Shown here piece after piece: positions 43,906 to 54,607 of a stretch of DNA of 64,000 nt (position 1 is its first letter; every line of letters begins with the position of its first letter). A model generated the notes under the pieces. It searched no databases. It was not told the DNA's origin and was given only the letters and a program-made list of their open reading frames with translations. The position numbers were made by a program, and so were the translations under genes. Source of the stretch: a virus; IMG/VR virus record IMGVR_UViG_3300032607_000125, positions 66,183 to 130,182 of that record; one strand, written 5' to 3'.

Positions 43906-44086
43906 GATCATTCTTTCGATGGAGCAAATTGCACTCGCCAGGTGGTTGGCTGATCTACCCGACGAAGAAATTGTCTATGTGGAATGGCTTATTGAAGAAG
44001 TTGAATCTGCGCTAGATGAAATCGTTTTGCAACATAGTGGACTGATCGAAGCAACAGAAGTACTAGACGAAATACGTAGACTTTAA
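43865..44086 (+). CDS. Hypothetical protein
   Basis: 73 aa, acidic. Confidence 0.6.
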   Translation: MKNKTGNQHQKNLKIILSMEQIALARWLADLPDEEIVYVEWLIEEVESALDEIVLQHSGLIEATEVLDEIRRL

Positions 44087-44124
44087 CGGTGTACATTAAT
44101 TCGTCTATTTGATATAATAGACTC

Positions 44125-45414
44125 ATGATATTACAAATCCTTAATGAATTAGCAGCAACTTCCTCTCGCCTTGAGAAGGAAGCTATCATCCGTCGTGAAA
44201 AAGACAATATGCTTTTGAAGCGTGTTTACTTCCTTGCGTATGATCCATTCACTCAATTTTACCAACGTAAGATTCCAGCGTATACACCTGCTCAAGCGAA
44301 TCAAGCAGACTCGCTTGATTCTGTACTTGATAGTTTGGCTATGTTGTCTACGCGTCAAGTTACTGGTAATGCCGCTATTGGATACTTAACAAAACTCTTA
44401 AGTTCACTCGTTGAACGCGATGCTCAAGTGATTGAACGTATCATTGGCAAAGATCTTAAGTGTGGTGCTTCTGATTCAACGGCTAATAAAATTTGGCCTG
44501 GTCTTGTACACGAATATCCTTGCATGCTTGCATCTAAGTATGATGAAAAACTTGTCGCTAAAATCAAATGGCCAGCGATGGCACAATTGAAGATGGATGG
44601 TATGCGATTCAATGCTATCGTTAAAGATGGCAAGTGTGAATTTCGTACACGTAATGGCAAGGAAGTAAATCTGCTGGGTAATCTTGAGCAAGAATTTATT
44701 GCTTTAGCTAAAGATAAGAATGTTATCTTTGATGGTGAGTTAGTCGTACTCAGTGAAGATGGAATGTCTTATCTTGATCGACAAACTGGTAATGGTATTC
44801 TAAACAAAGCTGTTAAGGGAACCATCACTGCTAAAGATACTAGTCAAGTTAGTGCAACACTATGGGATATCATTGATTATGAAGACTTTCATAATGGTGT
44901 ATCAAATCAGTCTTACCACTTGAGATTTAACAAGCTTGAACTGATGCCTTTGGATTCTGGTAAAATTAGGCGTGTTGCTAGTCAGACTATCAATAACATT
45001 GAAGAAGCTCGAGAGATATTTGAACAATATTTGTCTGAAGGCCAAGAAGGTATTATTCTTAAAGACTTGAATAATATTTGGGAAAACAAGCGTTCACGTG
45101 GTCAAATCAAAATGAAAGGTGAACTTGAATGTGATCTTAAAATCGTTGGCATTCAAGAAGGCACTGGAAAATACGTTGGTAAAGTTGGTGCATACATTTG
45201 TGAATCAGAAGATGGTATCATTAAAGTTGATGTAGGTTCTGGTTTTAAAGATCATCAGCGTATCATTGATCAAAGTGTAATCGGTAAAGTGATTGCAGTT
45301 AAATATAATGCACGTATTAAAAATCGTCAGGGTGGTGATTCTCTTTTTCTCCCAATTTTTCTCGAAGTACGTGAAGATAAAAAAGTTGCAGATAATGCAA
45401 AAGAAATTGAATAG
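44125..45414 (+). CDS. gp30: ATP-dependent DNA ligase
   Basis: QLKMDGMR, FDGEL, EGIILK, VGSG, FLP.F. Confidence 0.95.
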   Translation: MILQILNELAATSSRLEKEAIIRREKDNMLLKRVYFLAYDPFTQFYQRKIPAYTPAQANQADSLDSVLDSLAMLSTRQVTGNAAIGYLTKLLSSLVERDAQVIERIIGKDLKCGASDSTANKIWPGLVHEYPCMLASKYDEKLVAKIKWPAMAQLKMDGMRFNAIVKDGKCEFRTRNGKEVNLLGNLEQEFIALAKDKNVIFDGELVVLSEDGMSYLDRQTGNGILNKAVKGTITAKDTSQVSATLWDIIDYEDFHNGVSNQSYHLRFNKLELMPLDSGKIRRVASQTINNIEEAREIFEQYLSEGQEGIILKDLNNIWENKRSRGQIKMKGELECDLKIVGIQEGTGKYVGKVGAYICESEDGIIKVDVGSGFKDHQRIIDQSVIGKVIAVKYNARIKNRQGGDSLFLPIFLEVREDKKVADNAKEIE

Positions 45415-45459
45415 TAACGTTTGAAACGTATATATAAGTAATACAACAAAAGAAGTAAC

Positions 45460-45555
45460 ATGCTTTCACTCCTATCTTATCGCAAAAATATATTCTTAGG
45501 TCTTAATGACCAGAGTATTGCGTGCCCGTTCACATTTGAAGGTTGGGACGATTAG
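45460..45555 (+). CDS. Candidate leader peptide (31 aa)
   Basis: MLSLLSYRKNIFLGLNDQSIACPFTFEGWDD; stop codon overlaps the antiterminator arm; SD weak. Confidence 0.55.
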   Translation: MLSLLSYRKNIFLGLNDQSIACPFTFEGWDD

Positions 45556-45617
45556 AGCTTAGAAGTTACGTATGTACTTAAAGCTCTAACCTAAAAAGTT
45601 AGAGCTTTTGTTTTTTG
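45552..45617 (+). terminator. Attenuator: terminator 45580-45617 with competing antiterminator 45552-45560/45581-45589
   Basis: aaagctctaac/gttagagcttt 11-bp stem plus T-tract; upstream ttagagctt is a perfect 9-nt complement of the 5' arm. Confidence 0.75.
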
Positions 45618-45659
45618 TAGTGTACAATAAATCATAGATGGTGTATAATACATCTATCA

Positions 45660-45700
45660 GCAGATTAATCTTAGTCTGCATAAAAGATTCTTTAACAATT
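45660..45700 (+). promoter_or_regulatory. Hairpin + rrn-like boxA antitermination site
   Basis: gcagat/gtctgc hairpin then ATTCTTTAACAATT, between an early promoter and tRNA-Gln. Confidence 0.6.
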
Positions 45701-45715
45701 CAGGTTTTCTTATGT

Positions 45716-45793
45716 TGGGGTGTAGCCTAGTCCGGTCTAAGGCAACGGTCTTTGAAATCGTCATCATTGGTTCGAATCCAATCACCCCTGCCA
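45716..45793 (+). tRNA. tRNA-Gln(TTG)
   Basis: Cloverleaf, loop CT-TTG-AA, TTCGAAT, CCA. Confidence 0.92.
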
Positions 45794-45874
45794 TATAAAA
45801 ACACATTGGGCTTGATGCAAATCATCGCGGGTATAGTGCTCTCCGAGCCGCGGACTAGAGTGTGTTTCTATATG
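45791..45874 (+). repeat. Stem-loop element H1 (family H1-H5)
   Basis: ccatataaaaacacat ... gtgtgtttctatatg terminal inverted repeat. Confidence 0.65.
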
Positions 45875-45882
45875 ATATTTTT

Positions 45883-45972
45883 GGAGATATGGATGAGTGG
45901 CTTAAATCAACGGTTTGCTAAACCGTCGCTGGGTAAATCTGGCCGCAGGTTCGAATCCTGCTATCTCCGCCA
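45883..45972 (+). tRNA. tRNA-Ser(GCT)
   Basis: Long variable arm, TT-GCT-AA, G73, CCA. Confidence 0.93.
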
Positions 45973-45978
45973 AACATC

Positions 45979-46053
45979 GCGACTATAGCATAGTGGTAGT
46001 GCCGAGAACTCATAATTCTTAAGGGGTAGGTTCGAATCCTACTGGTCGCACCA
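45979..46053 (+). tRNA. tRNA-Met/Ile2(CAT)
   Basis: CT-CAT-AA, paired G1-C72 (not initiator), CCA. Confidence 0.88.
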
Positions 46054-46071
46054 ATTTTAAAAAGGAAGTTT

Positions 46072-46632
46072 ATGTCTACAGTATTAGCATTAGATGCAAC
46101 AGGACTTCCACGTAAATGGATCAACTATGAAGATGCTATTTCATATTTTGCAAAAGATATGGTGGTGTGGACATTAGGTGAAACTGTTGCAACATTTCGT
46201 GGAGGTATTCAAAATGACGGTGAGATGTCGGTGCTTAGCACTCCATCTATTATCGCTGTTCGTGGTAAAGGATTCTCCATAGAAAAAGCTGGTACAGTAG
46301 CACTGACTAATAAGATTTTGTTCGCTAGAGATAGAAACATTTGTGCTTATTGCGGTGGCTCCTTTACTAACAATCATTTGTCTAGAGATCACGTTCATCC
46401 TGTTTCACGGGGTGGACAAGACGTTTGGACTAACGTAGTAAGTGCATGTGTAAAGTGCAACACTCATAAGAGTGCTAAGCTTTTAAAAGAATGTGGATTA
46501 GAACTTTTATACGTTCCCTACGTTCCATCGCACTACGAAAATATGATTCTGCAAAATAGAAACATATTAGCAGATCAAATGAATTATCTGATGAGTGGTG
46601 TTCCAAAGCACAGTAGAATTCGATTAAATTAA
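46072..46632 (+). CDS. HNH endonuclease (McrA-like, two CxxC)
   Basis: RD...CAYCG, DHV.P.SRGG, NVV.AC..CN..K. Confidence 0.88.
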   Translation: MSTVLALDATGLPRKWINYEDAISYFAKDMVVWTLGETVATFRGGIQNDGEMSVLSTPSIIAVRGKGFSIEKAGTVALTNKILFARDRNICAYCGGSFTNNHLSRDHVHPVSRGGQDVWTNVVSACVKCNTHKSAKLLKECGLELLYVPYVPSHYENMILQNRNILADQMNYLMSGVPKHSRIRLN

Positions 46633-46637
46633 TTAAC

Positions 46638-46715
46638 GTACAGGTGCCCGAGAGGTCCAAGGGAACTGATTGCAAACCAGTAAAACCATGAGTTCAAATC
46701 TCATTCTGTACTCCA
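46638..46715 (+). tRNA. tRNA-Cys(GCA)
   Basis: TT-GCA-AA, U73 discriminator, CCA. Confidence 0.88.
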
Positions 46716-46847
46716 AATGACCATTTTAGGGCATAAACACCCTATATGAATCAACAACTTAGACACCTCAAAGTGACGTACGTTCATACTTCCCACGAAG
46801 ATGTATGGATACCCGCTTTGAGGTCTTTCAGGCACCTGAGGGACGGC

Positions 46848-46906
46848 AAACAACGGTGTACATTAATTAGAAGTTGTGGTATAATTGATCTATCAAAACA
46901 AAGGAT
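46848..46906 (+). repeat. 59-bp promoter cassette, copy 1 (identical copy at 47103-47161)
   Basis: aaacaacggtgtacattaattagaagttgtggtataattgatctatcaaaacaaaggat occurs twice. Confidence 0.9.
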
Positions 46907-46912
46907 AGAAAA

Positions 46913-47104
46913 ATGACTCGTAAATCTAAAGACATTGTCAACATTGTTGACGGCGTTAAAGTTACAATCTGTGCTTATCGTGGACCTCGTTTCAATGAAC
47001 AAACGTTCGATGTAAACAAGAGTCGTTACACAGCTTGGCATCAAGGTGTCAAGAACTATGAGCATGGCACCCGTGGAGTTCAAGGAACTGTAACAAGTTT
47101 GTAA
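46913..47104 (+). CDS. Small early protein
   Basis: Follows cassette copy 1. Confidence 0.65.
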   Translation: MTRKSKDIVNIVDGVKVTICAYRGPRFNEQTFDVNKSRYTAWHQGVKNYEHGTRGVQGTVTSL

Positions 47105-47166
47105 ACAACGGTGTACATTAATTAGAAGTTGTGGTATAATTGATCTATCAAAACAAAGGATCCATT

Positions 47167-47448
47167 ATGAAAAAAGTTAGAACAGACGCTTATATGTTTA
47201 CAGCAGATCCTCTGTGTGTAGGTGATATGCAAATGATTGAAACAGTTCGTAAGACAATTGCGATTGTGAACAAACAAGCAAACATTATTGCTAAATGGTC
47301 ACAGCAACCTGCAAAATTGTTTAGAGTTTGTTTGAAAGCGCGCTTGGGTAAGGGAAATCCTCTTTCTGAGAAATATAAAAATCAGTGGATTAAAAGCATT
47401 AAGCTTGAAGATGCACGCACAATAGACGTATACGTACAACGTCGTTAA
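47167..47448 (+). CDS. Small early protein
   Basis: Follows cassette copy 2; ATG 47167. Confidence 0.65.
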   Translation: MKKVRTDAYMFTADPLCVGDMQMIETVRKTIAIVNKQANIIAKWSQQPAKLFRVCLKARLGKGNPLSEKYKNQWIKSIKLEDARTIDVYVQRR

Positions 47449-47509
47449 TGTTAGTAAAATAACGGTGTACAAATAATAAAGAATGTGGTATAATTACTAC
47501 ATAAACTAG

Positions 47510-47550
47510 GAAAGATCATCGAATCTTTTCACAATAGTTCTTTAACAATT
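47510..47550 (+). promoter_or_regulatory. Hairpin + rrn-like boxA antitermination site
   Basis: gaaagat/atctttt hairpin then GTTCTTTAACAATT (47537-47550), between an early promoter and tRNA-Glu. Confidence 0.65.
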
Positions 47551-47565
47551 CAAGTTTCTTATTTT

Positions 47566-47640
47566 ACTGCTATCGTCTATCGGTTAGGACACTAGGTTTT
47601 CAACCTGGTAAGCGGGGTTCAACTCCCCGTAGCAGTACCA
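47566..47640 (+). tRNA. tRNA-Glu(TTC)
   Basis: TT-TTC-AA, CCA. Confidence 0.9.
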
Positions 47641-47728
47641 TATTAAAGCACATTAGATTCCTTTTACTCTGCCCTCTGCACCTAGTGCCACTGGCGGATT
47701 AGATTTCTTTTAGTGTGCTCTAATATGG
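47638..47728 (+). repeat. Stem-loop element H2
   Basis: ccatattaaagcacat ... gtgtgctctaatatgg. Confidence 0.65.
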
Positions 47729-47777
47729 TAATGAAGGACTAATTACCCTTCACCATAATCGGGAGTCATGAACCGAT

Positions 47778-47861
47778 GAACTCGTAGTCATCTAATGGTA
47801 AGGTAGGCCCGATTATGGGGCCGCATGCAGGTTTCGAAATCCTGTCTACAATGAGTTCGCA
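47778..47861 (+). pseudogene. tRNA-like element with non-canonical loops
   Basis: D arm TAATGGTAA, ggccc/gggcc stem with loop GATTATG, 9-nt T loop, extended acceptor stem, no CCA. Confidence 0.5.
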
Positions 47862-47930
47862 TATACAAACATACTTAACCGCCCATGTTGCACCTAGTGC
47901 GTGAAGGATCCGAGAGTATGTTTCTATATG
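47860..47930 (+). repeat. Stem-loop element H3
   Basis: catatacaaacatac ... gtatgtttctatatg; shares internal tgcacctagtgc with H2. Confidence 0.65.
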
Positions 47931-47943
47931 TTTTAAAAAGATT

Positions 47944-48018
47944 GCGGCATTCATATAACGGTCATTATCTCGGATTGTCTATCCGAAGACGGGAGTTCGA
48001 CTCTCCCATGTCGCGCCA
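47944..48018 (+). tRNA. tRNA-Asp(GTC)
   Basis: TT-GTC-TA, G73, CCA. Confidence 0.92.
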
Positions 48019-48145
48019 GTATTAGTTGGATTGATCATCCAAGATAGTAAACGCTAACCGTCGTGGCCACCCGGCGGTTCTTGCAGTGTTATACTGCTAC
48101 GAAAAGGCGGGGTAAGAGTCCCGATATAGGGTGTGCTAGTAATTT

Positions 48146-48221
48146 GGGGGATTAGCTCAGCTGGGAGAGCAATTGCTTTGCAAGCAATAGGTCAACGGTT
48201 CGATCCCGTTATCCTCCACCA
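48146..48221 (+). tRNA. tRNA-Ala(TGC)
   Basis: G3:U70, TT-TGC-AA, CCA. Confidence 0.95.
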
Positions 48222-48229
48222 AGTTTTAA

Positions 48230-48301
48230 GCGGGTTGTTTGTGGAATACGTTTAGCCTTCCAAGCTGAAAGATGCAGGTTCGAATCCTGTAGCCCGCTCC
48301 A
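48230..48301 (+). tRNA. tRNA-Gly(TCC) with a shortened D arm
   Basis: CT-TCC-AA, U73, CCA; only 72 nt. Confidence 0.8.
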
Positions 48302-48356
48302 GTAACTCTCCCTTGTATGCGGAGTATAATATGATAAGTAGTATACAAACGAATTA

Positions 48357-48441
48357 GCCCCGATGGTGGAATTGGTAGACATCCCGGTCTTAGAAGCCGG
48401 CGCCGAAAGGCATGCGAGTTCGAATCTCGCTTGGGGCACCA
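48357..48441 (+). tRNA. tRNA-Leu(TAG)
   Basis: CT-TAG-AA, long variable arm, CCA. Confidence 0.93.
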
Positions 48442-48585
48442 AAGCAGCGTATAGGTTACATTATTCAGTATGAGCAACAGGGTACCTAGGTAAATCCTTG
48501 GGCGGGCAATAGTACGTACATCAATGTAACAGGTGGTAGTGATCTACTTCGGACGAAGACCTCAAAACTTCGTCTACTAAATTTA

Positions 48586-48677
48586 GGAAAGTAATGCAGC
48601 GGGGTTGGTCCTGCGACCAGCCTTGAAAACTGGGTTCTCTTAATCGGGATGGGGTTCGACTCCTCTGCTTTCCGCCA
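48586..48677 (+). tRNA. tRNA-Ser(TGA)
   Basis: CT-TGA-AA, long variable arm, G73, CCA. Confidence 0.88.
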
Positions 48678-48685
48678 ATGTTTAT

Positions 48686-48761
48686 GTTGTCGTTAGTGTA
48701 ATGGTTAGCACCAGAGATTGTGAATCTCTTAGCATGGGTTCGAATCCCATACGTCAACCCA
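48686..48761 (+). tRNA. tRNA-His(GTG)
   Basis: G-1:C73, TT-GTG-AA, CCA. Confidence 0.92.
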
Positions 48762-48762
48762 T

Positions 48763-48838
48763 ACAACTTTAGCTGATGTGGTCATAGCGGTGTCTTGAAG
48801 CGGCATTGAAGCAGGTTCGATTCCTGCAGGTTGTACCA
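48763..48838 (+). tRNA. tRNA-Phe(GAA)
   Basis: TT-GAA-GC loop, wobble-rich anticodon stem, CCA. Confidence 0.78.
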
Positions 48839-48903
48839 AAAGTTTTGATAGTGTCGTAGATTTTGCATTAGTAGTTTAAGCAGAGGAATACATTATCAAT
48901 CAT

Positions 48904-48978
48904 TGCCTTATAGCTCAGAGGAAGAGCAAACGCTTGATAAGCGTTAGGTCGACATTTCGAAATTGTCTAAGGCAACCA
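48904..48978 (+). tRNA. tRNA-Ile(GAT)
   Basis: TT-GAT-AA, CCA. Confidence 0.9.
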
Positions 48979-48984
48979 ATTTAA

Positions 48985-49019
48985 TGGACTGAAACTTTAA
49001 GGTGAAGTAATTGGCTTTA
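48985..49019 (+). pseudogene. 5' half of a tRNA (Lys-like), broken at the anticodon loop
   Basis: tggactg-aa-actt-taaggtg-aagt-a-attgg-cttt, followed directly by a late promoter. Confidence 0.6.
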
Positions 49020-49051
49020 TTATATAAATACATAAACTATAAGGAATATGT

Positions 49052-49654
49052 ATGGAAAAATGTAAATTTTGCGCAAAATTGGGATTTAAGAATTTAAAAA
49101 TTCATGAAAGACAATGCAAAGAAAACGTTAATAGAACTTGTGCTATTGGTCATAAAGGCGGAAACCACTTTACTACTGGTAAATCTAAAACACATTCTGA
49201 TTTTACTAAAAATAAAATGAGCCAATCACAATTGGGGAAAGCTCATACAGAAGAGACTAAGAAAAAGTTATCAATTATACGAAAATTATATTTAGAAAAT
49301 AATCCAGATAAAGTTCCATATCTTTTAAACCATTCTTCAAAGATAAGTTATCCTGAACAATATTTTATTGATTGTTTTATTAATGATGTTGATGCTAAAT
49401 TTCAACATCATGTTTATAGATATAAATTAGATTTTGCCAATGTCAAAGAAAAATTATACTTTGAAATTGATGGTGAGCAACATTATAATGATAAAAGAAT
49501 TGTTGAACACGATATCAAAAGAACTCAAAAGTTAAATGAAATGGGATGGACATGTTTTAGATTGAGATGGTCTCATTTTCAAAAGTTAAACGAAGAAGAA
49601 AAAAAACAAAAAGTTTTAGAGATACGATTTATGATGAAATGGTATCATAGTTGA
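49052..49654 (+). mobile_element. Homing endonuclease, Zn knuckle + NUMOD3 + Vsr/DUF559-like nuclease
   Basis: CKFC, HTEETKKKLS, SYPEQ, LDF...EIDGEQH...D..R...GW..FR. Confidence 0.85.
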
Positions 49655-49698
49655 CTTTTAATCAACCTTTCCCAGTTCGAATCTGGGTGAATCGACCA
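49625..49698 (+). tRNA. tRNA-Lys(TTT), overlapping the endonuclease 3' end
   Basis: cgattta/tgaatcg acceptor, atga/tcat D stem, CT-TTT-AA, CCA. Confidence 0.88.
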
Positions 49699-49847
49699 AG
49701 TTTTGTTTATGTGTGTATGGTAATACCTTATGTGAATGCGGACCCATTTTTCATCCGGCTGCATTGTACTCGAAGCCCATAGCAGTAGGTGTCGAGCCTA
49801 TTGGTGATTGACTGAAAATATAGATCACAGTGAACAAATTAATTTTC

Positions 49848-49932
49848 GGAGTAGAAGCATCAATGGTGATGCAGAAGGCTGTAACCCTTCCGCCCTCGGG
49901 CACGCCTGGTTCGATCCCAGGATACTCCACCA
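49848..49932 (+). tRNA. tRNA-Tyr(GTA)
   Basis: CT-GTA-AC, long variable arm, CCA. Confidence 0.9.
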
Positions 49933-50085
49933 GTCAAACGATAGTGCGCACTATCTAACGGTTGTAAGTGACGATGAGTTATATCGGAACTTTCACTATT
50001 TTATTCCTGAGTTTAGCGGGTTTTGCGCAGACCTTGCCAATGTTAGTAACGTGCTATGCGATGAGCACCTTAGGAGCCAGTTTAT

Positions 50086-50160
50086 TCCCCAGTAGCACAG
50101 CGGTAGTTGCGCAACACTGTTAATGTTGATGTCGTACGTTCGATCCGTACCTGGGGAGCC
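50086..50160 (+). tRNA. tRNA-Asn(GTT), CCA not encoded
   Basis: CT-GTT-AA, G73 followed by CCC. Confidence 0.88.
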
Positions 50161-50199
50161 CTTCGGTTGAAGTACAAAATACTTCAACCACAATTTAAT

Positions 50200-50274
50200 G
50201 CGTCTGTAGTATAATGGATAATATTCTAGGCTACGAACTTAGTAATGGTGGTTCGATTCCATCCAGACGCACCA
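50200..50274 (+). tRNA. tRNA-Arg(ACG)
   Basis: CT-ACG-AA, CCA. Confidence 0.92.
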
Positions 50275-50284
50275 AGTATTTTAT

Positions 50285-50360
50285 AACTCAGTAGCTCAAT
50301 TGGCAGAGCACTTCCTTCATACGGAATAGGTTTCCAGTTCGAGTCTGGACTTCACGACCA
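50285..50360 (+). pseudogene. Pseudo-tRNA (CAT) with an unpaired acceptor stem
   Basis: Intact D, anticodon and T arms and CCA, but aactcag cannot pair with cttcacg; anticodon arm identical to the tRNA at 51689. Confidence 0.65.
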
Positions 50361-50368
50361 GTTTTATT

Positions 50369-50442
50369 GCCCTTGTATCCTTAATGGTAGAGGTGTCCTG
50401 TTTTGTAAGCAGGGTGCGGAGGTTCGATTCCTTCCTGGGGCA
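50369..50442 (+). tRNA. tRNA-Thr(TGT), CCA not encoded
   Basis: TT-TGT-AA; acceptor has one mismatch. Confidence 0.75.
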
Positions 50443-50501
50443 CTGGTAATACTGTAAAAAAGATGACTAAACGAAATAGTTATCTTCAAAAATATAAATT
50501 A

Positions 50502-50575
50502 GCCTCGGTAGTTTAATGGTAGAACGTCGTCTTTACATGGCGAATACGGGAGTTCAATTCTCCAACGAGGTACCA
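50502..50575 (+). tRNA. tRNA-Val(TAC)
   Basis: TT-TAC-AT, CCA. Confidence 0.85.
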
Positions 50576-50583
50576 ATATTATA

Positions 50584-50618
50584 GGAGGTCGGGATTTCAA
50601 AATTCCCCCCGGACACCA
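50584..50618 (+). pseudogene. 3'-half tRNA remnant
   Basis: Variable loop ggaggtc, T-arm-like stem, ...ggacacca; no 5' half. Confidence 0.45.
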
Positions 50619-50789
50619 GAATATAAATTAGTCTATTAGCCAACTGATAGATTAACTATGATGACTTTGTATGCCGAAGAACCGTGCATGCATTAAAAAA
50701 GTGGTATAGTCCACAACGGTCTGTCTATCAACTTCACATGTACTTTAAATCGTACATGTGATATAATTAATCTTTAATAGGAATATATA

Positions 50790-50939
50790 ATGAAACCAAC
50801 CAAGAACTTTAAGATGTCCAGCACTACTAAAACACTGTTGGCGTCTATTGCCGATAAAGATGTCTATAACCTTTTTAAAGCAAACATGGTTCAAGCTCAA
50901 CTGGCTTCAGAAATTAAACCAGCAAAAGAAAAGAAATAA
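50790..50939 (+). CDS. Small basic protein (49 aa), not in the ORF track
   Basis: MKPTKNFKMSSTTKTLLA...; early promoter at 50739 and AGGA RBS. Confidence 0.65.
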   Translation: MKPTKNFKMSSTTKTLLASIADKDVYNLFKANMVQAQLASEIKPAKEKK

Positions 50940-50945
50940 ATATAA

Positions 50946-51016
50946 CGCGGGGATTCAGGTGATCGGTCAGTCTCATAAGCTCGACCTAGAAGTTTCGAAT
51001 ACTTCCTCCGCAACCA
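50946..51016 (+). tRNA. tRNA-fMet(CAT)-like, degenerate D and anticodon arms
   Basis: C1:A72 mismatch, CT-CAT-AA, CCA. Confidence 0.6.
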
Positions 51017-51028
51017 ATTAGCGTTTAT

Positions 51029-51310
51029 TTGCAAAGTTCTTATGAAATAAAATTTGCAACTTTATTAGATGAATTGAACATTGAATGGTCTAGACCGGAT
51101 CCATTAACGTGGATAGATGATAACGGTGGTGATCATAGATATTATCCAGATTTTTTAGTTGGTAATATCTACATAGATATGAAAAATGACTATTTAGCAA
51201 TTAAAGATAAACCTAAAATTGATACAGTAAGACACCAAAATAAAGTTGATATTAGGATAGTAACAAAAGATTTTATAACAAAAGATTATATTTTAGCTCT
51301 TAAAGCATAG
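51029..51310 (+). pseudogene. N-terminally truncated TnsA-like PD-(D/E)XK endonuclease
   Basis: SSYE, RYYPDF, IDMKN; no good start or RBS; ends inside tRNA-Thr. Confidence 0.65.
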
Positions 51311-51370
51311 ATGGCGATGTACCGGTTTTGTAATCCGGTTAGTAGGGTTCAAGTCCTTGTGAGAGCACCA
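51296..51370 (+). tRNA. tRNA-Thr(TGT), overlapping the endonuclease 3' end
   Basis: gctctta/tgagagc acceptor, TT-TGT-AA, CCA. Confidence 0.88.
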
Positions 51371-51378
51371 TAACAAAA

Positions 51379-51417
51379 GTTCCGGGTGTGGGAGTTCGAT
51401 TCTCTCCTGGGGCACCA
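51379..51417 (+). pseudogene. 3'-half tRNA remnant
   Basis: gggag-ttcgat-tctct T arm, cctggggc-a-cca. Confidence 0.6.
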
Positions 51418-51502
51418 TATTAAAATACATAAAGTGAGTTAGCTTTAGGCTTTCCACCTATACATAGCAATCGCCGGACCTATGTTGTGTATTTCAATAT
51501 GG
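51415..51502 (+). repeat. Stem-loop element H4
   Basis: ccatattaaaatacat ... gtgtatttcaatatgg. Confidence 0.65.
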
Positions 51503-51553
51503 CAAAACTATTTAAGTACAATGGTCACACGCCCTTGCTTAAATTTGAAGTTG

Positions 51554-51678
51554 TCATATTAGAACTTTATTGACGTGCATAACTTGCAAGTTGCGCAAGA
51601 CCTGTGTGCGGTGATCTAGTAGTTGCGAACGGCTCTTGTACTAGCGAGAAAGCTTATATCGATAATGTTCTAATATGA
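51554..51678 (+). repeat. Stem-loop element H5
   Basis: tcatattagaac ... gttctaatatga. Confidence 0.55.
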
Positions 51679-51688
51679 TAATGTTCAT

Positions 51689-51764
51689 GGTAATGTAGCT
51701 TAGAGGCAAAAGCACTTCCTTCATACGGAATAGATCGTGAGTTCGAGTCTCACCATTACCACCA
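51689..51764 (+). tRNA. tRNA-Met/Ile2(CAT)
   Basis: TT-CAT-AC, paired acceptor, CCA. Confidence 0.88.
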
Positions 51765-51775
51765 TTAATTAATTT

Positions 51776-51854
51776 CCGAGCGTAGGATAGTCTGGCTCAT
51801 TCCGCCTGCTTTGGGAGCAGGATGTCGCAGGTTCAAATCCTGCCGCTCGGACCA
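51776..51854 (+). tRNA. tRNA-Pro(TGG)
   Basis: TT-TGG-GA, C1-G72, CCA. Confidence 0.93.
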
Positions 51855-51920
51855 AAATATAGTGGTGATAATTGGTATCACACTGCGTTAAATGTATAAA
51901 TAATAGTATAGGAGAAACTT

Positions 51921-52583
51921 ATGCTATTATGTAAATTTTGCAACAAAGAATGTAAAAACGAAAACTCTCAACGAAATCATCAAAGACTTTGTAAGAGTAA
52001 TGCTAATCGGCAATCAACATGGCTTGAAACCCATCGAGATCAATTGCCATCTTGGAATAAAGGTCATACTAAAGAAACTGATCCAAGGATTGCAGTTAAT
52101 GCTGCAAATACTTCCATTGGCATGAAACTAGCAATAGGCGAAGGTAGACATTCCGGTGCTTGGAATTCAGAGTATTGGACTGAAGAAGTTCGTAAAAATA
52201 AATCTGAAGAAAAAAAAGAACTTTATAGAAAATTTCCAGAAAAACATCCTAATAGAAAATTAGCTGGAAATAGAAATAAAATGACTTATCCAGAGCAAGT
52301 TGCTCATGATTGGTTGTTAGACAATAAAATATTATTCGAACCACAGAAGTTAATTGATGGAAAATATATTGACTTTTGTGTTGATAATATTGTTATTGAA
52401 ATAGATGGTGAGCATTGGCATCCAATTGGAAATACTGCAGATGCTGACCGTGATTCAAAACTAAAATCTTTGGGGTATGACGTTTATCGCATACGTAGTA
52501 AAGAAAATATACATAGTAGACTAGAAACAATTTTTAATCGCTCTTTTAGTATAAAGGCATTACAATACATTGGTAATGTATAG
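51921..52583 (+). mobile_element. Homing endonuclease, Zn knuckle + Vsr/DUF559-like nuclease
   Basis: CKFC..ECKN..S..NH..LC, TYPEQ, IDF...IEIDGEHWH, D..RD..L..LGY; late promoter at 51895. Confidence 0.85.
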
Positions 52584-52613
52584 ACGCTGGATCGTTACCA
52601 GCAAGGAGCACCA
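52540..52613 (+). tRNA. tRNA-Thr(GGT), overlapping the endonuclease 3' end
   Basis: gctcttt/aaggagc acceptor, TT-GGT-AA, atypical T loop ATCGTTA, CCA. Confidence 0.82.
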
Positions 52614-52623
52614 AGGAGTAGAT

Positions 52624-52830
52624 ATGAATCACGGCGGTAAGGGGTCTAAACCTAGACCAATCAGTGTAAGCGATATTGAATACGCAGATCGTTGGGATAC
52701 AATCTTCGGTAAAGATAAGAAACCTGAATTGAAAGAAGTAGTCGAATACGATAGTCGAAAGATGTTGACTGAAGTAGATCCTCTTCAAAAATTAGTAGAC
52801 ATATCCCAAGAATTGGGATTGTATGATTAA
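52624..52830 (+). CDS. Small conserved hypothetical protein
   Basis: GGKGSKPRP.SV...RWD.IF; AGGAG RBS. Confidence 0.7.
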   Translation: MNHGGKGSKPRPISVSDIEYADRWDTIFGKDKKPELKEVVEYDSRKMLTEVDPLQKLVDISQELGLYD

Positions 52831-52870
52831 CACGGCTTAGTCCTCTACGTAAGTACGACTGGGTTCTTTT

Positions 52871-52953
52871 ACCTGCATGGGGAAATTGGTAAACCCAGCG
52901 CACTTAAAATGCGCCACGCAAGTTTCCCGGTTCGACTCCGGGTGCAGGTACCA
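52871..52953 (+). tRNA. tRNA-Leu(TAA)
   Basis: CT-TAA-AA, variable arm, CCA. Confidence 0.92.
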
Positions 52954-52956
52954 TTT

Positions 52957-53030
52957 ATATCCATAGTGTAATGGCAACACTTTGTTCTCCAAAAGCAACA
53001 TTCTAGGTTCGAGTCCTAGTGGATATGCCA
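52957..53030 (+). tRNA. tRNA-Trp(CCA)
   Basis: CT-CCA-AA, G73, CCA. Confidence 0.88.
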
Positions 53031-53514
53031 ATCATAAGAGTCCTGGACACGCGGACTTTAAAATGAGGTGGATGTAAGTGGAATCCTTACAACTAATAAA
53101 TAAATTATGACACTTATAAAATACAGAGATGCTGGTATGGCAACATACACTTGGTTCTGGGTTGACTCTGAAACTAAACATCAAGTAAGTCCATATTTTG
53201 ATTCTGAAAAAGACGCAAATAAATGGGCAAATAGTGCATAACTGAATCTTGTTTTATATGAATAAATCTATCAAGGGAACTTGGTAACGCTTACAGTGGC
53301 GAATCACTGTGGCAAGTGGAACACTTCCACAATATGTTATGACTACACTTAATGATATGAAGGGTCACTTCATTATACCTATCGCAATGAATAAAACATA
53401 TTGAGTCGTTCGTCACGGGATCGTAACTGACCGCACCAGGGAATCTGGAATTAACCAGTGCACTTTATAGACATATGAAGTTACGAACAAATAGCAGTAG
53501 ATGTATTGCTTTTC

Positions 53515-53548
53515 AAAGGGAATCTTCGGATTCCCTTTGTCGTTTTAT
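53515..53548 (+). terminator. Intrinsic terminator closing the tRNA region
   Basis: caaagggaatc-ttcg-gattccctttg then tcgtttt. Confidence 0.8.
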
Positions 53549-53559
53549 ATAAGTAATGT

Positions 53560-53871
53560 ATGGCAATAAAACCACCCACACCTACAGCCGCAGCAGGCAG
53601 ATATAAAGAACATGCATGTCCAAAGTGTAATGTATTGCACAGAGGTCGGGGACCATATTGCACTAAATCATGTGCTAATCTTGATCGCAGTGAAGAAGTT
53701 AAAAAGAAACTTAGTGATACTAAGAAGTATGGCGATAAGGGTCAACTAGCAACATGGGAACTAAACTGGGGTATAGATTATGAGCCTATCATAGCTGGAC
53801 CGCCCGTGGGGCTAAATGATAATCAATTCGTTGAAGGTGGCGATGTTTGGACTTCAGATGACTCTTGGTGA
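53560..53871 (+). CDS. Small zinc-binding hypothetical protein
   Basis: CPKC...YC..SCAN, RSEE.KKKLS. Confidence 0.65.
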   Translation: MAIKPPTPTAAAGRYKEHACPKCNVLHRGRGPYCTKSCANLDRSEEVKKKLSDTKKYGDKGQLATWELNWGIDYEPIIAGPPVGLNDNQFVEGGDVWTSDDSW

Positions 53872-53911
53872 ATTATAAATAGAATAATATGAAAGTTTTA
53901 CTGGAGATCAC

Positions 53912-54607
53912 ATGCCGTTAGCAAGAGGTTTATCACAATTAGCAGGTTTAATTACTATCGATGGAAATGATGTAATTATGAATGGTGCGCTGGGTGCAAC
54001 AAATTTAATAGGAAATAATACTGGCGATGAAACACTAGCAACTATCAAGAGCAAGTTGGGTGTTACAACCCTCAGTGGTACTAACACTGGGGACCAAATC
54101 ATCCCAACAACTTTGCCAGCCTCTGACGTCTATGCATGGGCAAAGGCAACAATAAAGCCAACTTACTACGCCGCAGACGTTGGCTTGGGCAGTGTTGATA
54201 ACACTTCAGACTTAGCCAAGCCAGTCAGCACAGCCCAAGCCGAGGCAAACACCGCAGTTCAAAACGCAGCAGCCTCAGACGCCACAAGCAAAGCCAATGC
54301 TCGGCAAGCTACCCTAGTCTCTGGCACAAACATTCGTACAGTGAATGGTCAATCTGTGTTAGGCACTGGAGACTTGACTATCTCATCTAGTTCAGTGACA
54401 ATGAGTACAACTGTACCGAATACTCCATCATCTGGAGACCAATGGTGGGACTCTACAGAAGGCGCATTATATATTTATTATGATGATGGTGATTCTCTAC
54501 AGTGGGTTCCTTCTACAAATAATTTTGCTGGTCCAGTTGCAAGCACTACAGAATCAGTCGGAATCACTACAGGTAAATCAATTGCAATGGCAATTGTATT
54601 CGGATAA
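53912..54607 (+). CDS. Tail-fibre-like protein
   Basis: VGLG.VDNTSD..KPVSTAQ, LVSGTNIRT.NG, P..GD.WW...G.LY.YY.D motifs; late promoter at 53874. Confidence 0.75.
   Translation: MPLARGLSQLAGLITIDGNDVIMNGALGATNLIGNNTGDETLATIKSKLGVTTLSGTNTGDQIIPTTLPASDVYAWAKATIKPTYYAADVGLGSVDNTSDLAKPVSTAQAEANTAVQNAAASDATSKANARQATLVSGTNIRTVNGQSVLGTGDLTISSSSVTMSTTVPNTPSSGDQWWDSTEGALYIYYDDGDSLQWVPSTNNFAGPVASTTESVGITTGKSIAMAIVFG

Follow-up and report, generated by a model that had tools for sequence, protein, structure and literature searches.

A conserved short reading frame and three-arm repeat ahead of a phage tRNA array: a probable ribosome-mediated attenuator with a full-alphabet leader

Between a DNA ligase gene and a long array of tRNA genes, the phage DNA examined here carries a short leader open reading frame (ORF) that ends inside a three-arm repeat. 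We consider this element to be, probably, a ribosome-mediated attenuator, one that would sample every class of aminoacyl-tRNA and gate late transcriptional read-through into an array covering 20 amino acids. The DNA is a stretch of 64,000 nucleotides, called the window, which spans positions 66,183 to 130,182 of the IMG/VR virus record IMGVR_UViG_3300032607_000125 and forms the final 64 kb of a 130,182-bp phage genome; coordinates are those of the window unless the genome is named. An attenuator at this place had been proposed in a sequence-only reading of the window, and the predictions that it makes at the level of sequence held in relatives: the ORF is conserved and coding in character, its stop codon keeps its position, the arms change together and the element is tied to the head of the tRNA array. 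How the element would function is read from these features.

Relatives were collected in two ways. A ligase-based scan of viral contigs gave 80 loci, and a pattern of terminator plus promoter, which is independent of the ORF and of arm 1, gave further viral and metagenomic contigs. An nhmmer search over all loci found the element 58 times, corresponding to 28 distinct metagenomic sequences. A profile search of 1.8 billion proteins added six more small ORFs of the leader family, and a back-translated peptide scan of viral contigs returned known members only. The parts of the leader and of the switch in the window are these:

45450 to 45455, plus strand: Shine-Dalgarno (SD)-like AAGAAG, which aligns with AAGAGG, GGAG or AGGAAAG in relatives
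45460 to 45555, plus strand: leader ORF of 31 codons, from the ATG at 45460 to the TAG at 45553-45555 (from the sequence; open in relatives)
45499 to 45511, plus strand: hairpin P1 inside the ORF (GGUC, 5-nt loop, GACC), recognised by covariation, a candidate RNA polymerase pause hairpin
45523 to 45524, plus strand: pyrimidine-G step 11-12 nt after P1, lying in a codon CGC, CGT or TGC in every homologue, a possible pause site
45552 to 45560, plus strand: arm 1, the antiterminator 5' strand, containing the stop codon
45563 to 45579, plus strand: inner helix and loop of the antiterminator (AAGU.AC / GUACUU), from folds
45580 to 45590, plus strand: arm 2, the shared strand, at once antiterminator 3' strand and terminator 5' strand (repeats; terminator scan)
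45598 to 45608, plus strand: arm 3, the terminator 3' strand (repeats; terminator scan)
45609 to 45617, plus strand: U tract of the intrinsic terminator (sequence; terminator scan)

Comparison of the homologues argues that the leader ORF is a real reading frame under selection, and from this we infer that it is translated. The frame is open in 28/28 distinct homologues while the other five frames average 1.7-2.8 stops, the ATG with its preceding SD is kept, the indels are multiples of three and pN/pS is about 0.64. Substitutions are codon-like, with synonymous third-position changes at Ala, Arg, Pro, Phe, Ser, Glu, Gly and Gln codons; four synonymous Ala codons occur in one column, and elsewhere CGC alternates with CGT, TTT with TTC, GAA with GAG, GGA with GGT and CAG with CAA, as do CCG, CCT and CCA with one another. 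The conserved short ORF that the earlier reading proposed to look for upstream of tRNA arrays in related phages is present, with a coding signature. The SD had been called weak, which is fair for the AAGAAG of the window but does not extend to the relatives, many of which have AAGAGG or GGAG. Six residues of the leader peptides (M, N, Q, R, E and W) vary hardly or not at all, within a semi-conserved motif N-x-Q-[AS]-I-[AV]-R-[PT]-F-[ST]-x-E-(G)-W whose Trp lies 2-6 residues before the stop (10 in the relative L085). The peptide has no Pfam or PHROG family match, and the leader peptides are polar and mixed, without the hydrophobic transmembrane stretch looked for as a sign of a type I toxin or membrane micro-peptide.

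What sets these leaders apart is their composition. All 20 amino acids are present in 18/25 distinct peptides, which are only 31-35 residues long (43 in one), against a chance expectation of about 1e-4, and 19 are present in three more; the set is complete in 10/14 clade representatives and, again within 31 residues, in another member of the family that the protein search returned. The leader of the relative L024 (L024:4592-4687) is one with the complete set. Stretches drawn at random from the phage proteome contain 20 amino acids with a probability of 0 to 5e-4, and column-wise permutation of the family alignment predicts 0.66 complete sequences where 10 of 14 are observed (0/20,000 permutations); with the six invariant residues held fixed the probability is 0.1-0.3% per sequence, or 0.6-2.5% with the leaders' own composition, although the lineages are related and the probabilities stated are not those of independent trials. 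Cys is found in five different columns and His in eight, and Tyr, Pro, Lys, Val, Phe and Asp also shift between clades. Such clade-specific positions of rare residues are to be expected if selection acts on whether a residue is present and not on where it stands. For most clades all 20 amino acids, or all but one, have appeared before the Trp codon is reached, and a stall in that part of the ORF would leave arm 1 free. The leader of the window by itself is less telling. Our recount agrees with the earlier one: its 31 codons comprise 26 different codons and 18 amino acids (no His, no Val), with four Leu and three Ser codon types, and this diversity is no more than marginally unusual (P = 0.027 for the amino-acid count and 0.026 for the codon count). 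The earlier caution that codon diversity is not decisive is therefore true of the window alone and the strong signal comes from the relatives, which lend strong support to the idea that a stall at any codon could be sensed, since most homologous leaders hold all 20 amino acids and relocate their rare residues between clades. The usual mark of an attenuator, a run of some regulatory codon, is absent from the leaders.

The second pillar of the argument is the switch itself. The window has three copies of the 9-mer TTAGAGCTT and no more (at 45552, at 45599 and, on the minus strand, at 45581), all within 56 nt, where shuffles average 0.74, and the resulting inverted repeats pair 9/9 bases between 45552-60 and 45581-89 and 11/11 between 45580-90 and 45598-608. 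A terminator scan independently marks the hairpin 45580-45608, followed by a tail TGTTTTTTGT. Repeat and terminator scans thus bear out the earlier claim that the stop lies within a perfect complement of the 5' arm of a terminator with an 11-bp stem and T tract, and the folds contain the lengthening of the alternative helix by aagt/actt, seen here as the inner helix. At the same place relatives have different inner helices (GAG/CUC, AAGAG/CUCUU, GGU/ACC, GUG/CAC). When the stretch running from the Trp codon through arm 2 is folded, arm 1 pairs with arm 2 in the minimum-energy structure of each of 21 sequences, and in a second set this pairing is found in 27/28, the exception, L085, being mis-anchored. 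In the lineages folded, antiterminator hairpins reach -13 to -22 kcal/mol and terminators -13 to -24 kcal/mol; in most sequences the arm 1:arm 2 duplex is better than in dinucleotide shuffles (z of -2 to -4.6).

The arms also change in concert. Changes in arm 2 at four alignment columns are mirrored in both arm 1 and arm 3 (for example A/U/U versus G/C/C); at one of these columns a C-to-U change in arm 2 that is unique to the window is met by G-to-A in arm 1 and in arm 3. Compensatory changes affect 8/11 pairs of the terminator. Cognate arm 1/arm 2 duplexes average -12.4 kcal/mol, compared with -9.9 for non-cognate ones (permutation P = 5e-5). The covariation of the triple-arm repeat, for which a check in relatives had been proposed, is supported by this test together with the per-sequence folds. 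The presence of G-U pairs (GGGUCU:AGGCCC) indicates that the structure is one of plus-strand RNA. The stop codon is located in arm 1 or in the antiterminator loop and lies 24-33 nt from arm 2 in all homologues, including L085, whose ORF passes arm 1. With this spacing a terminating ribosome would cover arm 1 and the inner 5' strand and leave arm 2 free. A trp-like design with four segments and a 1:2 helix was considered and discarded, as arm 1 pairs with the 5' UTR or with early codons no more stably than shuffled sequences do (mean z = -0.47).

Within the ORF, hairpin P1 is paired in 96% of cells, and two of its pairs have changes on both sides; 0/500 shuffles reach the observed values. Its compensating changes exchange Gly and Asp codons, and in one relative P1 lies in another reading frame. 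The pyrimidine-G step that follows is universal and is kept even where Arg becomes Cys. Hairpin-dependent pauses occur in the his and trp leaders, and P1 with its pyrimidine-G step has the form and spacing of such a pause, which suggests that it may play the same role here. Taken as a whole, the leader has a more stable fold than its shuffles (z = -3.65). Its A-rich 5' UTR with the SD (45445-45459) is 80% complementary to arm 3 and the U tract (45598-45612), and the two ends of the terminated leader RNA pair in the minimum-energy fold. Such end pairing might seal the released RNA and conceal its ribosome-binding site, unless it is just a trivial consequence of A:U pairing. An Rfam search of 44000-54000 at E up to 1 returned tRNAs and chance matches only, leaving the leader uncovered and containing no T-box.

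The element is present in single copy in the genome and lies 79-450 nt 5' of the first tRNA gene of an array, almost always tRNA-Gln, with no tRNA upstream (23/23 distinct sequences with enough downstream DNA). The array and its flanks in the window read as follows:

44125 to 45414, plus strand: ATP-dependent DNA ligase gene, the upstream neighbour of the leader (ORF list; tblastn)
45716 to 53030, plus strand: array of 23 tRNA genes for all 20 amino acids, with interspersed endonuclease ORFs (ARAGORN and Rfam; HNH endonuclease by PHROGs)
53514 to 53539, plus strand: strong intrinsic terminator, 11-bp stem with 5 GC pairs, about 480 nt after the last tRNA (Trp), probably the end of the tRNA operon

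The first gene of the array is a tRNA-Gln starting at 45716, and the 23 genes listed by ARAGORN agree with the earlier statement that tRNAs for all 20 amino acids lie downstream. Where the available DNA sufficed, arrays behind the element cover 20 (the window and L105), 19 (L148) and 18 (L085) amino acids.

Transcription could reach the leader and the array from more than one start, and the control signals involved are the following:

45429 to 45436, plus strand: T4-type late promoter motif TATATATA, with 7/8 matches to TATAAATA
45621 to 45649, plus strand: independent promoter TGTACA-N17-TATAAT (promoter scan)
45660 to 45679, plus strand: small boxB-like hairpin GCAGA / UCUGC downstream of that promoter (sequence reading)
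45688 to 45700, plus strand: boxA-like TTCTTTAACAATT after promoter and hairpin

The late motif of the window aligns with an invariant TATA[A/T]ATA, most relatives have exact TATAAATA, and nothing is conserved further upstream in their alignment, that is, there is no conserved -35. Genome-wide TATAAATA has 18 plus-strand and 3 minus-strand copies, several of which sit 17-50 nt 5' of gene starts with SD and ATG. The genome also encodes a gp55-type late sigma factor (genome 60862-61452; phrog_234, E = 2.5e-55) with 54% identity to cyanophage gp55. Because of this factor and of the strand bias and positions of TATAAATA, it is plausible that a T4-type late promoter drives the leader. A late motif near 45433 had already been noted, and it stands; its register does not, since TATAAGTA at 45433 is an overlapping alternative and the alignment of relatives favours TATATATA at 45429-45436. 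The ligase gene is another possible origin of transcription reading into the leader.

The promoter at 45621, which the earlier reading had pointed to as a caveat, is found by the promoter scan and conserved in relatives: GTGTACA is invariant in 19 aligned relatives, and L021 has another promoter-like sequence at the same place. Since the array has a conserved promoter of its own, the switch would be limited to extra, probably late, transcription. The sequence (G)TGTACA-N17-TAnAAT, often with TG before the -10, has 20 plus-strand copies and 1 minus-strand copy in the whole genome, those of the window being at 380, 20979, 37274, 37319, 38116, 42439, 44090, 45621, 46857, 47112, 47466, 60215, 62193, 62449, 62979 and 63941, and it is the second main promoter class of the phage. 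One may speculate that its unusual conserved upstream box is the target of a phage activator, by analogy with the MotA box of T4. The TTCTTTAACAATT motif, which we take to be closely similar to boxA of E. coli rRNA operons, has just 2 sites in the 130-kb genome, 45688 and 47538, each after a promoter that opens a tRNA block. These promoters, at 45621 and 47466, are both followed by a small hairpin and then by TTCTTTAACAATT. Relatives have different hairpins at the boxB-like position (GUCAAUC/GAUUGAC, GUCUG/CAGAC), and GTTCTTTAAAAATT follows hairpins of differing sequence. By analogy, the boxA-like sites suggest Nus-factor antitermination on an untranslated tRNA operon.

Taken together, these parts would work as follows. 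Transcription would start at the T4-type late promoter, or read in from the ligase gene, and enter the 31-35-codon leader ORF, where P1 and the pyrimidine-G step may pause polymerase for the ribosome to catch up. An unhindered ribosome arriving at the stop codon would mask arm 1 and the inner 5' strand while remaining at least 24 nt short of arm 2, so that the arm 2:arm 3 terminator with its U tract could form and a leader RNA of about 175 nt, reaching from about 45443 to 45609-45617, would be released. A ribosome stalled at a hungry codon upstream of the Trp codon would instead leave arm 1 free to pair with the emerging arm 2; the terminator would then come too late, and polymerase would pass the boxA-like site into the tRNA genes. 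Given leaders from which few or no amino acids are missing, the switch would sense a shortage of any charged-tRNA class, and its answer would be more phage tRNA.

Several observations weigh against this attenuator. The leader of the window has no His or Val even though its array has both tRNAs, and in the relatives closest to the window the leaders are the least complete of all, at 16-18 amino acids. Nor do the leaders favour codons that the phage tRNAs read (0.74 versus 0.77 genome-wide); matching of codons to the phage's own anticodons has accordingly been dropped as an explanation, the leader sampling amino acids and not phage-read codons specifically. A pure sensor of any codon would not need six invariant residues (M, N, Q, R, E, W), and some relatives have tRNA arrays without the element. 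Moreover, a conserved promoter with its boxA-like leader begins 4 nt past the U tract, making the array independent of read-through. In the full leader the terminator state is more stable by 3-15 kcal/mol, so read-through must be a kinetic outcome. Finally, a fixed-column covariation count on the model-fitted alignment is not significant for the six-pair antiterminator core (81% paired, as against 85% after a slide of +1). The GGG:CCC core is nearly invariant, and the GGGCU and GGGUCU sub-families are offset from each other by one base in register; support for the antiterminator was taken from the per-sequence folds, the shuffles and the cognate/non-cognate test rather than from fixed columns.

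It is possible that the ORF is simply a stand-alone late micro-gene whose product is the peptide of 31-35 residues, with its own promoter and terminator, in which case its adjacency to the array would reflect gene order and the arm 1 repeat would serve mRNA stability or translation termination. The six invariant residues, the semi-conserved motif and a pN/pS below 1 are compatible with such a gene, as are its own promoter motif, the efficient-looking terminator and the array's independent promoter directly downstream. However, a micro-gene leaves unexplained the second helix that competes with the terminator, with its matched changes in three arms, and likewise the constant distance from the stop to arm 2 and the full alphabet with its moving rare residues. 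Its peptide would belong to no Pfam or PHROG family, and the residues after the Trp are dictated by the nucleotides of arm 1. We regard this explanation as unlikely. Another explanation retains the switch, whose geometry is equal to that of a ribosome-mediated attenuator, and makes the leader an arrest peptide of the TnaC, SpeFL or SecM type, in which a conserved C-terminal part of the nascent chain stalls the ribosome on one ligand or condition and so sets the choice between terminator and antiterminator. The invariant Trp near the stop, the invariant Arg and Glu and a conservation that acts on amino acids while codons change synonymously all speak for it. But a stall at or after the Trp codon would mask arm 1 and favour termination, an inverted logic, and in two lineages the Arg has become Cys (CGC to TGC) with the pyrimidine-G step kept, which points to a nucleotide constraint at this codon. 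Neither the full-alphabet composition nor the relocation of rare residues is explained by arrest, and no match to known families was found for the peptide, so that we hold an arrest peptide to be quite improbable.

The opposite view would dispense with translation altogether and take the element for a non-coding structured small RNA, or for the plain terminator of a ligase operon, with an incidental open frame and a chance repeat. Indeed, the compensating changes in P1 override amino-acid identity and in one case occur in another frame, and the fold of the whole leader is better than that of shuffles. It is nevertheless difficult to reconcile an incidental frame with its being open in 28/28 homologues while all other frames are closed, with a conserved ATG and SD, with indels in threes and with substitutions in a wobble pattern, or a chance repeat with one that is conserved and covaries; nor does Rfam contain a match. 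We consider this view very unlikely. Each of these explanations covers part of the data, and none of them covers the three-arm switch, the fixed stop position and the full alphabet together, as the attenuator would.

The surroundings of the element provide some further detail. By tblastn, the ligase shares 43% identity with that of T4-like Vibrio phages. Megablast and blastn searches with the region and with the element of one relative gave no match to the element among 50,697 phage records, and this collection holds no close cultured relative of the phage. An extra small gene of about 65-75 codons, reading '...FWRGEK.DE.DYHDE...', lies between ligase and leader in L004, L012, L016, L024, L031, L040 and L041 and is not present in the window; in these relatives the late promoter motif stays with the leader and not with the upstream gene. 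Rfam reports three tRNA-like stretches absent from the ARAGORN list (48586-48673, 50290-50351 and 51296-51367), two of them above the tRNA gathering score and one a below-threshold tRNA-Sec match that may be a long-arm Ser tRNA. A lone tRNA-Arg (anticodon TCT) lies at genome position 4044, outside the window and well away from the array; a TGTACA-type promoter immediately precedes it, and the boxA-like motif is absent.

Leader-peptide attenuation is the textbook mechanism of amino-acid biosynthetic operons, in which each leader senses one or a few amino acids. With the enterobacterial attenuators (trpL, hisL, leuL, pheL and the multivalent thrL and ilvL) the phage element shares a short leader with an SD, possibly a pause hairpin within the leader, and a terminator 5' arm that can pair upstream, so that a ribosome either stalled or at the stop codon would decide the outcome. 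It differs from them in its target, which would be tRNA genes rather than biosynthetic enzymes, in a leader that has one or a few codons for every amino acid instead of a regulatory codon run, in having three arms and not four, and in a late promoter that would drive the leader while the regulated genes also have a promoter of their own. Ribosome-mediated attenuators that sense translation inhibitors are known from Bacillus bmrB-bmrCD and vmlR and from Listeria lmo0919, where they control bacterial resistance genes and respond to drug-bound ribosomes. They sense translation stress much as the phage element would, a general slowdown of ribosomes on a short leader ORF favouring read-through, but their leaders are not known to be full-alphabet or to precede tRNA genes. 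T-box riboswitches also control the choice between terminator and antiterminator by the state of tRNA; unlike the phage element they bind one uncharged tRNA directly, need no translation and control synthetase or amino-acid genes. A T-box identity for the leader was set aside on the Rfam result given above and on its pattern of conservation, which is that of codons.

The nearest system in print is the trn operon of Anabaena sp. PCC 7120, a long tRNA array induced by translational stress (PMC8421152, PMC10272220). It too comprises accessory tRNA genes, about 23-26 of them, and is expressed more strongly under impaired translation. In contrast to the phage element it is cellular and plasmid-borne, and it is regulated at the promoter, by direct repeats and the TrcR repressor (PMC8421152); the words 'attenuator', 'leader' and 'terminator' are absent from the main text of PMC8421152. 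Searches of the full-text literature turned up no description of a leader attenuator ahead of phage tRNA genes, nor of a leader containing every amino acid. New here is the full-alphabet leader peptide, seen in 18/25 distinct cases.

A bolder scenario, to which we would give about an even chance, is that the leader serves as a 'test peptide' in which selection has kept one or a few residues of every amino acid, and which would gauge all charged-tRNA classes at once, feed back on late synthesis of a complete phage tRNA set and thereby steady translation when host tRNAs are lost to decay or to anticodon-nuclease defences. It predicts that read-through responds to starvation for the amino acids in a given leader and not for those absent from it, His and Val in the present case. 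A pan-amino-acid sensor this compact could possibly be used as a reporter of translation stress. If the attenuator is real, a whole-alphabet leader gating tRNA genes would be a general gauge of decoding capacity, phages would regulate their tRNA genes by feedback and not merely carry them, and a concrete, testable link would exist between phage tRNA arrays and the depletion of host tRNAs or the defences that target them.

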